In this document: one piece after another, positions 12,850 through 21,367 of the stretch
Layout: each line of letters starts with the position of its first letter
Position numbering within the stretch: position 1 is the first letter of the stretch
Assembly: GCA_001938485.1 (NCBI GenBank)
Contig: MQRK01243178.1
Coordinates: 1 to 51,442, forward strand
DNA: 51,442 nt
Direction: 5' to 3'
Source: Girardia tigrina
Taxonomy: Eukaryota
Translations under genes and position numbers: made by a program
The notes under the pieces: generated by a model
The model's database searches: none
The model's input: the letters and a program-made list of their open reading frames with translations, nothing else
Told to the model about the DNA's origin: nothing

Positions 12850-13686
12850 AGTAGGGGGAAAATGCGGGTTCTCCCCCAACCCCTGGGGGTAGCCCGTTAC
12901 AATGGCAGCGGTCGCCGCTACCATGGCAACGGTCACGGTTACCATAGCAACGGTTGCGGTTACCATAACAACGGTTCCGAACACCCTACCAACGGTTACG
13001 AACACCCTAGCAACGGTCCTCATCACCTTAGCAACGGTTCCGGTTCACTTGGTAACGGTAACCAAGGTCTTAGTTACCATAGCAATGGTAACAAAGGGAC
13101 GTTTTTCAATAGCAACGGATACAGTGATTCAAGGCGGTTGTAACCATGCTAACGTTTACCGCATCCATAGTAACCGTGACCCTTAGCAACCACAGATCAA
13201 AAATGTGTGGCACAATGTGCAATATCGATTATCACATCGGGGCACAATGCAGTGATCAATTAGCATTTTTTTGTGTTAGCATAGGGCTTTTCAAGCTGCA
13301 CATGTGCAAAAGTGCAAATACATAATTTTTTTTAAAAGTACTAGTGTCAAAAATCGATATCATGTGTTTGATATACATTTTGATTCTCTATCTGAATGTG
13401 CAATTAGAACTTACATATATTGATTACTTTTTCCTATAATTAGCATAATGTGCAAATTTACACAAAATGCACATCGATTTTAGAGATAGAAGAAAGCAGA
13501 ATATCAAAAAAGTGCTGATGCACTTGAATAATAACCCATATACGCATATTCAGATTCCATATCAACATTTTTGAAAAAGCGCTGATAAATTGATTTTTTC
13601 GAATATTTCTGAATAATTCGAATAATTCTTTAAAAAGTGCACAAAAATCGATTTTTTCATATATATTTGAAACCCCTATGATATAT
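12850..13686 (+). repeat. Left terminal inverted repeat
   Basis: Reverse complement of 20663-21367; the right copy has fewer 21-bp units. Confidence 0.92.
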
Positions 13687-13965
13687 AGGAAACATTTCAG
13701 GTTCAAAATTATTCAGAGTAGTCTTTTTCAAAGCATTGATATTAATTGGCTCACCATAATCACACGTCACTGTAATAGATTGTATGGTGATATTGAATGG
13801 TGGATCAATTGGTTGTTTACAGTCAATTATTCGACATTTTCCATTGCGGAAGAATATGATGGTGTACTCCGAAAAGTGTAAAATACATTGACACGGTTTA
13901 GTACCAAAATGGAGGTCATTCAGGCATTCTTCAGTAAATCCTTTGTAATTGATATTACGCAGCAT
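13687..13965 (-). pseudogene. Compact TBP-like (TATA-binding protein fold) gene, 3' truncated at the TIR
   Basis: TIIFFRNGKCRII resembles TBP TALIFSSGKMVCT. IQSITVTCDYGEPININAL...FEPEMFP resembles TBP IQNMVGSCDVKFPIRLEGL...YEPELFP. Confidence 0.7.
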
Positions 13966-15364
13966 TTTGTGAAAAATGTACGTCAGTATTCATTTCAATT
14001 CAAAGTCCTTGCCTTGTGTCTAAAATGAAGTGGAAGTTTAAAACCTTTAATGAACTTAACCAGGTAACTGAAGAAAAGAAGATTGATGATAAGACAATTA
14101 ATGGACCTAACCAATTAACTGAAGAGATAAATACTGATCAACCTAATCTAGTTGAACAAGTCAGACCAGTAGGGCAGTCTAGACTAGTCAGTCTTCCTAG
14201 GCTAGTTGGATAACCAATAGTAGCCAAGGCTAGCCGGGCTAGCCTAGGCACTCAGACAACCAAGGATATCCAGGCACCAATTGCTGAAGCTTTGGTTAGT
14301 CAGGTTAACCAAGCTAGTTATTTTCAACCAAAACAAAGATGCTCCACAAAAATCTTCCTCATCATGGGTTTCTACATCAACAACATATAGAGGATATCAG
14401 ATTAACCTTTTGAAATATCTGAAATCAATTAAATTGAGAGATCCGGTATATGTTAGAAAGAGCAAATCTTTTGAATATTGCCCTACAAGAAGTTGGAAAA
14501 AGACCAGATGGGAATGTGAGTGAACATAGAGAACAATATTTTTGATCAGATGATGGATTAAAATTCAGAGATTTTATGGGTCATGAAAAACCAACAATGG
14601 ACTTGTCTANNNNNNNNNNNNNNNNNNNNNNNNNNNNNNNNNNNNNNNNNNNNNNNNNNNNNNNNNNNNNNNNNNNNNNNNNNNNNNNNNNNNNNNNNNN
14701 NNNNNNNNNNNNNNNNNNNNNNNNNNNNNNNNNNNNNNNNNNNNNNNNNNNNNNNNNNNNNNNNNNNNNNNNNNNNNNNNNNNNNNNNNNNNNNNNNNNN
14801 NNNNNNNNNNNNNNNNNNNNNNNNNNNNNNNNNNNNNNNNNNNNNNNNNNNNNNNNNNNNNNNNNNNNNNNNNNNNNNNNNNNNNNNNNNNNNNNNNNNN
14901 NNNNNNNNNNNNNNNNNNNNNNNNNNNNNNNNNNNNNNNNNNNNNNNNNNNNNNNNNNNNNNNNNNNNNNNNNNNNNNNNNNNNNNNNNNNNNNNNNNNN
15001 NNNNNNNNNNNNNNNNNNNNNNNNNNNNNNNNNTATGGAAACTGTCAGAAATTCGTTGTATTTAATTGTTGATACCAGTTGTATTGTTGTGTTAATAAAT
15101 CTTGTAATAATTTAGTCTTGATTTTATATAAAATAGCTTAAAACACTTGTTAAAATGGATTTAGAAACACAAATGAAATATGTATTAGAGACACTGAAGC
15201 TGAATTTTAAAATGAATGGAGAAATGTACTTGTACGTTAATAAATGTTTCCCATGTTACTTTCTGAAATGATTATTTGATGAACCTTTAATTGAATTAAA
15301 ACGTAACAAGATTATAAAGAACATTTATTTATTTACATATGTACAATATATACAAGTGCATCAT

Positions 15365-19132: not shown

Positions 19133-19456
19133 TACATTAGCCTAGTATGTCAAAATGCAAGTAAACGCTAGGCAAAAATTTGTAACTGCTATGGACGCAG
19201 TTTATGCTCTGAAATATCACGGTCGTACTTTATACAGTTTTGGTGGTTAAAAAATTAAAACATAAATACCATTGAGAATGTTAAACATTCTTTAACATTC
19301 TCAATGGTATTTATGTTTTAATTTTTAACTACCAAAACCGTATAAAATACGACCCTGGCGTTTCAGAGCATAAACTACGTCCATAGCAGTGACAGTTTTT
19401 CGCTTAGCGTTTACTTGCATTTTGACATACTGGACAAATGTAATACTCACATCTAT
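19119..19456. repeat. Palindrome of two head-on histone H4 C-terminal fragments
   Basis: + arm [28 protein letters not shown]; - arm [28 protein letters not shown]. 5-nt loop at 19286-19290. Confidence 0.9.
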
Positions 19457-20049
19457 TGAACACATCCATAGTAACGCTGCATTGTATCATTACAAATTTG
19501 TGGATTATGAACATTTACCTGGCGGCATCTGTATAATGGACATTTTTGAATTTTCGTAGGAATTTTCTCTTGAATCATCTTCGACATATTTTCTTTGAAT
19601 ATATTCTTTTTCGATTTGATGAAAGGAACTAGATGTTGTTTATGGTTGTAATCTTCTTCCATTATTTAAATATTGAATAATTTAAATAAATAAAAGACAA
19701 GATCAGTTATTTGAAAAGTTTATTAATAACTAAATCTATCGATTTAAACAATCGATAAAAAAATCATTATTTTTTATTTAACAAAAATTAAATTAAAAAT
19801 CATTATTTTTAATTCAACAAATTGAATTAAAATAATTTATTGATTAAGTAAAGTTGTCACAATGGTCATTGTAAAATTCTTCAAAACTAGTTCTGTACAC
19901 TGCCTCACATGTTGGACATATAAAATATTCTTGTGAAGAGAAATTGTATTTGTAGTATTGGGATAAATTTGAATTCTAAAAAGATATTTTTTACGGAGCT
20001 GAAAAAAAAACTCACCATTTTCTTAACAAAATTTTGAAATAATGATAGA

Positions 20050-21367
20050 TGTCTGATTAGAAATTAATTTGATTAAAATTCAAATTTTGTTAACATAATG
20101 AATGCAATTCGTTGACATGATGAGTGCATAACAAATTGCATGATGAATGCAATATGTTGACATGAAGGATGCATGACATATCACCTTGGATGCGGTCATG
20201 TTTTGTATGGTTGAAATGCTAATTATATATTATAATATTTTACATAATAGTTTGTTTTAATGTATCACTTTTCATAAATATATAAAAAAATGGAATAGAA
20301 TGAACTCTGACAAGGTAAGTAGATGTCGAACCCTCCCCCGGGGGGTCTCCTGATTTAGAAAGCCTATGCATGTTTTAGGTATTCCATAGGATTTTATATA
20401 TAAAATTAAGGTTATATTAAATGGTTACGGTAACCAAGGTACTATGATAGTTTATGTCTAGGTTTATCTACTTTACCAGATCATGTACATGTTAGGTATA
20501 ATGTCTATGCACGTTTTAAGTACTATAGGAGTTTTGTACATGTAGATTTCACATGTAAAATAAAAGGTTATGTATCTTGGTTGTGGTAACCATGGTGCTT
20601 GTGATTATTAAGGAAGTATATTAGGCAATTTATGAGGTATTGTTTGATGGTAAACAACATACATATATCATAGGGGTTTCAAATATATATAAAAAAATTG
20701 ATTTTTGAGCACTTTTTAAAGAATTTCAGAAATATTCGAAAAAATCAATTTATCAGCGCTTTTTCAAAAATGTTGATATTGAATCTGAATATGCGTATAT
20801 GGTTTACTATTCAAGTGCATCAGCACGTTTTTGATATTCTGCTTTCTTCTATCTCTAAAATCGATGTGCATTTTGCGTAAATTTGTACATTATGCTAATT
20901 ATAGGAAAAAGTAATCAATATATGTAAGTTCTAATTGCACATTCAGATAGAGAATCAAAATGTATATCAAACACATGATATCGATTTTTGACACTAGTAC
21001 TTTTAAAAAAAAATTATGTATTTGCACTTTTGCACATGTGCAGCTTGAAAAGCCCTATGCTAACACAAAAAAGTGCTAATTGATCATTGCACTGTGCCCC
21101 GATGTGATAATCGATATTGCACATTGTGCCACACATTTTTGATCTGTGGTTGCTAAGGGTCACGGTTACTATGGATACGGTAAACGTTAGCATGGTTACA
21201 ACCGCCTTGAATCACTGTATCCGTTGCTATTGAAAAACGTCCCTTGGTTACCATTGCTATGGTAACTAAGACCTTGGTTACCGTTACCAAGTGAACCGGA
21301 GCCGTTGCCATGGTAAGGGGCTAACCCCCGAAGGAGGATGGGGGAGAACCAGCATTTTCCCCCTACT
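20050..21367 (-). repeat. Right terminal inverted repeat and subterminal region
   Basis: Ends in CTACT. Collinear, with deletions, with 27120-28876 and 40140-42302. Confidence 0.88.

Follow-up and report, generated by a model that had tools for sequence, protein, structure and literature searches.

Polintons or Mavericks (adintoviruses, with pPolB of the Alpha/group 2 type; PMC8502044, PMC4028283, 10.1101/2023.08.22.554363) are recognized by AG..CT ends, long terminal inverted repeats (TIRs) and a 6-bp target-site duplication (TSD); their gene set comprises a protein-primed family B polymerase (pPolB) that harbours an endonuclease VII insert of the HNH type, an rve integrase with a chromodomain, an A32-like ATPase, a protease and a double-jelly-roll capsid. 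Polintons that lost the major capsid protein (MCP), protease and ATPase together have been described (Krupovic 2014, PMC4028283), and TBP appears as a gene label in the legend of a MELD-virus figure (Starrett 2021, PMC8502044). Bidnaviruses and the Drosophila Vesanto virus (PMC4061559; PMC8363768) have segmented genomes; their pPolB derives from Polintons, and each segment bears terminal repeats that match those of the others. Their genomes are ssDNA, their capsids are of the parvovirus type, and no integrase is described for them. A cheating route to multipartite viruses, in which complementary deletion genomes drop a shared product and exist beside the full-length form, is set out as theory by Leeks (2023; PMC10159356). 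The literature searched, including that on planarians, yielded no two-segment Polinton.

The stretch of DNA analysed here (the window; 51,442 nt of Girardia tigrina contig MQRK01243178.1) contains an element at 12850..21367 (Table 1) which resembles Polintons in its ends, TIRs and TSD, but whose family differs from each of the systems named: polymerase and integrase, the namesake genes of Polintons, reside on two elements, each with its own TIRs; the capsid module, rather than being lost, has been amplified as an element of its own; and, unlike bidnaviruses, the family retains the Polinton morphogenesis module and the integrase, with both segments integrated. With respect to the cheating route, an integrating dsDNA element would here preserve such a step as a fossil record in a genome. 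We consider it fairly probable that the window element was inserted as segment A of a bipartite Polinton and has since decayed, A being split from its partner, segment B, along the early/late boundary.

Table 1. Position of the element, its parts and related sequences in the window
Feature	Position	Strand	Remark
Old left-type TIR remnants	1437..2320	+	
Left target-site copy CCGTCT	12844..12849	+	5/6 match to right flank
Left TIR	12850..13686	+	lacks its inner part; starts AGTAGGGGG
21-bp repeat array with X-box-like sites	12894-13086		inside left TIR
Mini-TBP gene	13687..13965	-	codons 1-99 of 145; PF00352
orf261, predicted T7 gp2.5/Enc34-type ssDNA-binding protein	14025..15065	+	broken, crosses N gap
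Assembly gap, 424 N	14610..15033		spans ~70 bp elsewhere in the family
Poly(A)-signal / TATA / start-codon block	15066..15178	+	also found ahead of orf83 on segment B
orf79, small ORF of layout A1	15156..15392	+	
pPolB, Cys-rich 5' part, endonuclease VII insert	15460..20018	-	
Fold-back palindrome	19112..19462	n/a	window copy only
Subterminal region	20090..20391	n/a	common to other family copies
Right TIR	20392..21367	-	ends CCCCCTACT; A, B and lineage M carry this sequence family
Right target-site copy CCGTCG	21368..21373	+	
Another right-type TIR arm	27938..28876	-	tip intact, 78% to window arm
pPolB fragment from another decayed copy	38238..38835	-	
Another right-type TIR arm	40846..42302	-	

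The ends agree with the original prediction: the termini are of the AG..CT type, the TSD is near-perfect, and the long TIRs are 95.6% identical over 663 nt (13025-13686 versus 20663-21314), to which the tips at 12850-12954 and 21250-21367 are to be added. The tips hold RFX X-box-like sites, in 19 strand matches at 11 places against 0.09 expected. At least five related arms, as had been counted, lie in the window; the duplication (98.8%) that spans the N gap at 41440, within the last of them, is likely an assembly artefact. Equally, no integrase, ATPase or capsid gene was found inside the element, and the N gap is too small in other copies to hide them. Matches to rve at 42556 and 50357 were considered as the element's integrase and rejected, as they are 25-27% identical and lie outside the TIRs; the one at 50357 sits in a Gypsy-type pol. 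The window copy and all copies inspected are broken or deleted.

The predicted pPolB is present, but stops, shifts of frame and the fold-back disrupt it; its start is likely an ATG followed by a short intron. The window protein itself matches only PF02945 in Pfam, with Exo and Pol motifs visible; it is 32% identical over 583 aa to the pPolB of L047, which matches PF03175 (E 9e-28). Alpha adintoviruses are recognized by a PolB of the pfam03175 type with an OTU-like domain at its N-terminus and by their place in a reference tree; of these marks, the comparison covered PF03175, which relatives match. A first look gave 3495 candidates for pPolB and 1317 for TBP, in line with the abundant self-synthesizing family that had been proposed.

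No match to orf261 was found by sequence searches of PHROGs and PDB. Its C-terminal domain, modelled from copy L004 (pLDDT 83), has an OB fold with a capping helix, and the top structural matches are DUF2815, T7 gp2.5 and Enc34 SSB (Z 8.9/7.9/7.7; rmsd 2.7 over 106 aligned residues for the best); the top eight Foldseek matches all belong to the T7 gp2.5/Enc34 SSB family, but at E 0.026-0.22. On the model, orf261 is predicted to be an ssDNA-binding protein of the T7 gp2.5/Enc34 type.

The TBP-like gene of the original prediction is truncated in the window, where a deletion running into the left TIR has removed its 3' part. The mini-TBP matches PF00352 with E 4e-15. A model of the natural full-length copy L009 (pLDDT 91.8) has the two-repeat saddle fold of cellular and archaeal TBP, with TM-scores of 0.74-0.81 to M. 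jannaschii TBP, and its best 44 PDB matches are all TBPs. The mini-TBP keeps the glutamates of the YEPExFP stirrup and three phenylalanines (E94, E96, F39, F98 and F114, invariant in 14/14), whose roles we assume to be those in cellular TBP; it differs in being 145 aa long, in a first repeat without long helices and in an identity of 20-25%. No TBP relatives were found in viral_contigs.

The histone H4 sequence, which had been counted as cargo together with TBP, is of another kind. It is a 350-nt fold-back of two inverted 120-nt copies of the host H4 3' end (19165-19285 and 19291-19410), each holding the last ~28 codons and 35 nt of 3' flank, together with the neighbouring 45 nt of the element, copied in inverted orientation. 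Instead of a full ORF in several copies, it is non-coding, interrupts the 5' part of the pPolB frame and is missing from all 14 other copies that span the site; the linkage across copies that had been proposed as a test thus confines H4 to the window copy, and H4 cargo is ruled out. The hairpin was probably a later accident, by repair templated on abundant H4 mRNA. The TBP-like gene, in turn, stands as a real gene of the element but not as a substitute for others, since it is regular in one-piece relatives with the full gene set (the metagenomic L047, L053, L102 and L104). Replacement of the family's integrase, ATPase and capsid genes by TBP and H4, as a copy without the former and with the latter seemed to suggest, is therefore very improbable, the more so because the missing genes do exist on segment B.

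Segment B is a separate element of ~9 kb with the same TIRs as A, and its genes are present in hundreds of copies. It encodes an ATPase (Pox_A32), an integrase (PF00665 and chromo), a putative penton assigned by position only, the MCP, a protease assigned via similarity to L073 (PF00770) and the small ORF exo154. The MCP has an Atlas score of 0.98 to a cluster in which 24% of the members carry PF21738; searches of PHROGs and of PDB sequences gave no match for the capsid protein. Segment A, to which the window copy belongs, encodes pPolB, orf261 and the mini-TBP. Neither the window element nor any A copy inspected has the integrase, and in the window lineage (W) the ATPase, protease and capsid proteins, both the major and the minor, are likewise found on B only; the complete Polinton core set is obtained only when A and B are taken together, which is the partition of essential genes over segments with common termini known from multipartite genomes. 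At 8.5 kb for the window element and 9.0 kb for the most complete B copy, with a sum of ~18 kb, neither segment reaches the 13-25 kb of Polintons. A reading of the window element as a one-piece family's copy with deletions was dropped in view of segment B. A second, closer pPolB family as partner of B was also sought; a distant pPolB query gave mostly the same contigs, at 36-43% identity.

The partition recurs in the loci sampled. Among 20 ATPase loci, 18 are B-type, 15 have a TIR upstream and none has TBP or orf261; 20 MCP loci continue to a TIR in 14 cases and to pPolB in none. ATPase follows W-type orf261 in none of the nine resolved loci (of 13), and exo154 follows the pPolB C-terminus in none of 11 (of 14). 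A markers occur on 496 contigs and B markers on 341; the two that carry both have separate insertions with a TIR between. A census 3' of TBP (12 TIR and 0 ATPase of 20) does not discriminate, because TBP is terminal in M, the one-piece sister lineage treated below, too. In sequencing run X1, summed contig depth, which is not a copy number, is similar over TBP and MCP. Runs X3 and X6, which may be RNA, cover TBP and MCP of this multi-copy element but not the host spacer, and are not taken as evidence of expression. In run X21 the element is not present.

The assembly is fragmented, with short contigs and many gaps, and two layouts might arise by misjoining at long TIRs. We find this scarcely credible: 6-bp TSDs flank both types (5/6 in the window copy and 6/6 in C230143 and C232877 for A; 5/6 and 4/6 for B), the TIR trees pair both arms of a copy with one another in 6/6 cases, and the gene-to-TIR junctions recur at identical positions in many diverged copies. 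Another question is whether a one-piece W master exists, rare or collapsed in this assembly, with A and B as its common internal-deletion products. Internal deletions are indeed frequent, and the sampled loci are top-scoring matches mostly on long contigs, while one-piece copies of M land on short ones, so that a young one-piece W could be under-sampled. However, no one-piece W junction was seen among the resolved loci, and an exact-pattern search genome-wide, assuming one spacing and without a genome-wide positive control, gave none; contig overlaps number eight each for the within-segment pairs TBP1-pPolB and ATPase-exo, zero for TBP1-ATPase and for exoB-pPolB, and two for TBP2-ATPase of the rarer M. 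Selection on variants of already-split copies, described below, also argues against such a master, which we judge improbable.

That the genome holds no one-piece form at all is contradicted by lineage M, a one-piece sister with ends of the A/B type. Its orf261-ATPase junction is spanned at 18 of 40 scored places and the junction of exo154 to the pPolB 5' end at 38 of 40, and copy L223 links both ends; in order and junctions, as deduced from these and one deleted copy, M has the gene set of a Polinton on one element. M, L047, L053, L102 and L104 resemble the window family in the mini-TBP and in the order ATPase-INT-penton-X-MCP-PRO, L047 and M also in a TATAAAC box before late genes; they differ in having TBP, pPolB and the late cassette on a single molecule. 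In both the TBP and the ATPase tree, W is sister to M and nested in one-piece relatives. TIRs of A and B interleave in trees (an A-only clade is rejected, p-AU 2e-69), and TIR subfamilies are common to M, A and B. Synonymous distances to M are 0.63-2.1 for A genes and 0.40-0.56 for B genes; that they are unequal between the halves weighs against assuming a single fission event.

The motif TATAAAC separates the segments. In the interiors of four of four B copies there are 6-10 sense matches, against ~1 in shuffles and 0 antisense; four of four A interiors have none. It precedes INT in 10/10, MCP in 7/10 and TBP1 in 0/11 cases, that is, most B genes and none of the A genes tested. Variants shared among copies fall preferentially on third codon positions in the genes for TBP1 (p 4e-4), pPolB (p 1.4e-4) and the B integrase (p 7e-4); a TIR control has no such bias (p 0.57). 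None of the other B genes is significant singly (ATPase p 0.33, exo154 p 0.56, MCP p 0.06, orf83 p 0.09); pooled, B genes are (p 0.002), and B-side selection rests on the integrase and the pooled test. By this codon pattern, the TBP-like factor shows purifying selection, which, together with its modelled TBP fold, speaks for the earlier suggestion that the family may carry promoter-recognition machinery of its own. Since these variants are common to already-split copies, split copies had working descendants.

The main rival is that A and B are independent partial cheats from one-piece ancestors, moved mainly by M (or in teams of A with M and B with M), and that the two never formed a closed system. 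M could supply every function in trans, and the common TIR subfamilies and the larger synonymous distance of A genes fit such helping. Against this, A and B are exact complements cut along the TATAAAC boundary, the promoter-start block is common to layout A1 and B and missing from M, A's own genes and the B integrase were under selection, and there is the depth similarity in run X1. We regard the helper reading as unlikely, though as an alternative to be taken seriously.

The bipartite reading, with one segment for replication and transcription and one for integration and the virion, common termini, a TBP-TATAAAC switch acting in trans and thousands of fossil insertions beside a one-piece sister, is one we hold to be reasonably probable. 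A one-piece ancestor with the gene order of M probably gave rise to the two halves through deletions that complement each other. A's polymerase would then copy both segments from their common ends; a host-type early promoter would yield A's TBP, which would activate the TATAAAC late genes of B in trans; both segments would be inserted by the integrase of B, whose capsid proteins could package both. What the genome itself contains is two layouts with common ends, separate TSD-flanked insertions of each, the one-piece M and TATAAAC before most B genes; that A and B needed each other to spread is likely.

How virus genomes become segmented or multipartite is still debated, and historical evidence on it is scarce. 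With a one-piece form and two complementary halves in one genome, and many datable insertions, the order and timing of a split become readable. The partition is also a natural test of the mini-TBP, as its presumed target box stands before most genes of the other segment, and the predicted T7-type SSB is a likely replication factor to be added to the Polinton gene set. Pipelines which require all core proteins within 20 kb, as given in Jeong (2023; 10.1101/2023.08.22.554363), would miss such elements. If the bipartite reading is true, Polintons can move with their polymerase and integrase on separate elements.

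The Polinton-like element predicted in the window is real: its ends (AGTAGGGGG left, CCCCCTACT right), flanks (CCGTCT left, CCGTCG right), TIR arms and pPolB gene were all found, and five or more related arms were counted in the window, as the original prediction had it. The two TIR arms of the element are 95.6% identical across 663 nt, the inner part being missing from the left one. Its pPolB lies on the minus strand, is broken by stops and frame changes, contains an endonuclease VII insert, and shares 32% identity across 583 aa with a pPolB of metagenomic origin which itself matches PF03175. 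The polymerase seemingly starts with an ATG followed directly by GT(G/A)AGT and an intron-like stretch of 40–50 nt ending in AG, as also at L199, L201, L202, L203, L018, L019 and L025 (fetched loci of the family); the sequence of this stretch differs between the two layouts, A1 and A2, of window-type elements (segment A). Further features are listed in the table.

Features in the window and at fetched loci
Feature	Position	Strand	Remark
Polinton-like element	12850-21367
TBP-like frame	13687-13965		cut at codon 99 of 145
Polymerase start	20018-19975	minus	intron-like stretch
Second repeat	26376-27393; 38951-40402		54-bp tandem array; directly inward of two TIR arms; rare among fetched family loci
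Decayed LTR-retrotransposon genes (RT, RNase H, protease, integrase)	5137-9151; 29420-32797; 48798-51328; 42277-43110		5137-9151 also with CCCH zinc-finger frame and DUF1759
Integrator subunit 7 N-terminus, exon-like match	47328-47960	minus	probably a host gene
Perfect 105-nt inverted repeat	9865-10102		28-nt spacer
14-bp tandem array	46023-46166
Genes near TBP in one-piece relatives	L047:225-719; L049:4008-4316; L102:7136-7993 and 9080-9478
Weak PLA2-like match in an M-type copy	L245:1546-1800		directly after SSB, unlike other M copies
Tips of B copy C223974	L119:8435; L120:7479		AAT.. / ..ATT

The histone H4 sequence, which had been proposed as cargo, is an accident of a single copy. It consists of 120 nt from the H4 3′ end in two copies that form a 350-nt fold-back around a loop of 5 nt, and splits a Cys-rich frame which in other copies continues into the polymerase; all 14 other fetched copies spanning the site are empty there (6–10 nt). 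In the animal-type host genome (1.43 Gb, 255,254 contigs) the H4 part was matched at three places besides the window (40 scored), namely a full H4 frame, a piece with a terminal histone-type stem-loop and a 5′-truncated piece, and no element flanks were found around these three. The fold-back may stem from repair on a template of H4 mRNA, which is abundant, with fold-back synthesis as the next step. Several of the host's dispersed H4 copies or fragments (L015, L016, L017) share nearly the 3′ endpoint of the window piece, and one of them retains the histone-type stem-loop.

The integrase, ATPase and capsid genes were thought to be replaced by other cargo; they are instead located on a partner element with the same TIRs. 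The genome holds 705 candidates for capsid, 757 for ATPase and 692 for exo154 (a working label for a small ORF with no Pfam match), and these genes sit in elements of about 9 kb (segment B) with the order TIR, orf113, orf83, ATPase, small ORFs, integrase, putative penton, X, capsid, protease, exo154, TIR, in which pPolB and TBP are absent. The B integrase combines rve and chromo domains, the ATPase is of the Pox_A32 type, and the capsid has an Atlas score of 0.98 to a cluster of which 24% of the members carry a double-jelly-roll Pfam match.

Gene junctions were counted at 20 loci per end, taken from the top-scoring hits with room on the contig. Upstream of ATPase 15 loci reach a TIR, one is rearranged, one interrupted, one meets the contig end, and two belong to lineage M, a one-piece sister in the same genome; downstream of capsid (15 resolved) there are 14 TIRs, no pPolB and one inverted piece of TBP where the contig ends. 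The count downstream of TBP (13 resolved: 12 TIR, one subterminal, no ATPase) has no discriminating power, since M also has TBP in a terminal position. Window-type orf261, a predicted SSB gene, is followed by orf79 and the 3′ end of pPolB in layout A1, that of the window, and by the 5′ end of pPolB in A2; nine of 13 fetched loci were resolved, as four A1, four A2, one TIR and no ATPase. After the pPolB C-terminus (11 of 14 fetched loci resolved) come orf79/orf261 in six cases, the terminus in five and exo154 in none. Among the matches listed, 496 contigs carry an A marker, 341 a B marker and two both, as separate insertions with a TIR between. Target-site duplications agree at 5/6, 6/6 and 6/6 positions in A copies (one of low complexity) and at 5/6 and 4/6 in B copies, most other copies being without one tip. 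The B copy C223974 has the same variant at both tips, which look as if one end had templated the other before insertion.

At one ATPase locus orf261 lies upstream. This junction, spanned at 18 places of the 40 scored, the locus itself counted, is that of lineage M, whose TBP is 61–73% and whose ATPase about 80% identical to those of the window lineage, to which A and B belong; M orf261 (12 loci, nine resolved) is followed by ATPase in eight cases and by something else in one. The junction from exo154 to the pPolB 5′ end is spanned at 38 of 40 places, and a deleted copy, L223, connects both ends of M; from these the M order is TIR, orf113, TBP, SSB, ATPase to exo154, pPolB, TIR. Layout A2 is thus M minus the ATPase-to-exo154 block, and B is M minus TBP, SSB and pPolB, plus orf83, while a promoter-start block common to A1 and B is absent from M. 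Quick trees of TBP and of ATPase (SH-aLRT 90–99) both recover the window lineage and M as sisters, embedded within the one-piece relatives. A genome-wide exact-pattern search for a one-piece junction of the window lineage, with one spacing assumed and with a sole, local control (four A1 loci with a related pattern), gave no match; we consider an unseen one-piece master of this lineage improbable. Synonymous distances to M are 0.63–0.80 for TBP, 0.98 for SSB and 1.5–2.1 for the N-terminal part of the polymerase, and 0.47–0.56 for ATPase, 0.40 for exo154 and 0.09 for orf113; because they differ, the A and B halves may have separated from M at different times. Three public metagenome contigs (L042, L043, L044) carry an M-type TBP and the same TIR sequence, and in L043 the ATPase is missing between SSB and the late gene that follows.

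The cut between A and B coincides with a promoter boundary. Four B interiors contain 10, 7, 6 and 8 sense copies of TATAAAC and no antisense copy, against a shuffle mean of 0.7–1.3 and at most 5; in four A interiors neither strand has any. Within 70 nt upstream of the gene the box is found for ATPase in 25/30 copies (B and M pooled), orf83 in 18/22, orf113 in 27/29, integrase in 10/10, penton in 7/10 and capsid in 7/10, and for X (between penton and capsid) in 0/12, TBP1 (window lineage) in 0/11, TBP2 (M type) in 0/22 and orf79 in 0/2.

A tree of 56 TIR cores, including one duplicate and omitting three short cores, has A and B interleaved, with strong branches requiring at least six label changes; a clade of A alone is rejected (p-AU 2e-69), and arms of the same copy pair in 6/6 cases. 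The ends are far closer than the genes, which suggests TIR exchange during shared replication. The M TIRs fall at two places, at one of which they form a well-supported clade with A and B; that A and B depended on M appears to us a possible but rather unlikely explanation. The TIR tips of the window element contain RFX X-box-like sites at 11 places, with 19 strand matches where 0.09 would be expected; they are absent from 77 metagenomic loci. In some TIR subfamilies (tips of L041, L180, L216) CCAAT-box repeats (CCAATCAG) lie amid the X-box-like repeats, a block which the window copy is without.

The TBP-like gene is, as predicted, a true gene of the element family, with 1317 first-look candidates genome-wide and a match in 150 of 150 scored. 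Relatives elsewhere are 41–92% identical, and among 77 metagenomic loci the longer contigs have TBP within one-piece Polintons that also encode ATPase, integrase, capsid and pPolB (e.g. L047, L053, L102, L104). Genes for a ubiquitin-conjugating enzyme, a dual-specificity phosphatase, a KilA-N protein and a PLA2-like protein occur near TBP in one-piece relatives. The structure model of a full-length natural copy (pLDDT 91.8) has TBPs as best PDB matches, its first repeat being without the long helices; E94, E96, F39, F98 and F114, presumably the TFIIB stirrup and intercalating residues after cellular TBP, are invariant in 14/14 sequences. Head-to-head with TBP lies orf261, for which searches of PHROGs and of PDB sequences found no match and Atlas gave only a weak lead to phi29-type SSB (0.85). 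The model of its C-terminal domain (pLDDT 83) best matches DUF2815 (Z 8.9), T7 gp2.5 (Z 7.9) and Enc34 SSB (Z 7.7), with rmsd 2.7–3.2 over 106–108 residues, followed by ASFV CP312R (Z 7.2) and all others at Z ≤5.0; Foldseek E-values are weak (0.026–0.22). The product is accordingly predicted, from the model, to be an SSB.

Variants common to at least three copies were examined for third-codon-position bias, private variants being spread evenly across codon positions. The bias is present in TBP1 (22/32 versus 39/118, p 4e-4; 17 copies of shown layout), pPolB (p 1.4e-4; 14 copies), B integrase (p 7e-4; 11 copies) and the pooled B genes (p 0.002), and not significant in ATPase (p 0.33, three M copies removed), exo154 (0.56), capsid (0.06), orf83 (0.09), M TBP (0.28) and the TIR control (0.57). 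At the level of sequence, selection is evident on the A genes and on the B integrase. Summed depth in sequencing run X1 at a natural locus with both TBP and capsid is similar over both genes and thousands of times that of host spacer, which is not a copy number.

No description of a two-segment Polinton was found in the literature searched, subscription journals and Repbase lying outside the search. The available portions of the Starrett preprint, Krupovic 2024, Jeong 2023, Krupovic and Koonin 2014, Krupovic 2014, the C. elegans Polinton preprint, Wallace 2021, PMC11071296 (2024 preprint) and Leeks 2023 describe none; Starrett 2021 (PMC8502044) has TBP in the legend of a figure on MELD viruses, and the text of its supplement, figure images excluded, no mention of TBP, bipartite or segment.

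A and B have complementary layouts, shared ends, separate insertions flanked by target-site duplications and partitioned promoters, and likely constitute a bipartite Polinton alongside a one-piece sister; we lean towards a closed system of the two. By analogy to established Polinton biology, pPolB with terminal protein would copy any molecule with these ends, SSB helping, integrase would join any such molecule to the chromosome, and its packaging could fall to ATPase, capsids and protease. Host factors, perhaps RFX at the X-box arrays, would start the early genes of A, and the mini-TBP of A would then switch on the TATAAAC genes of B.
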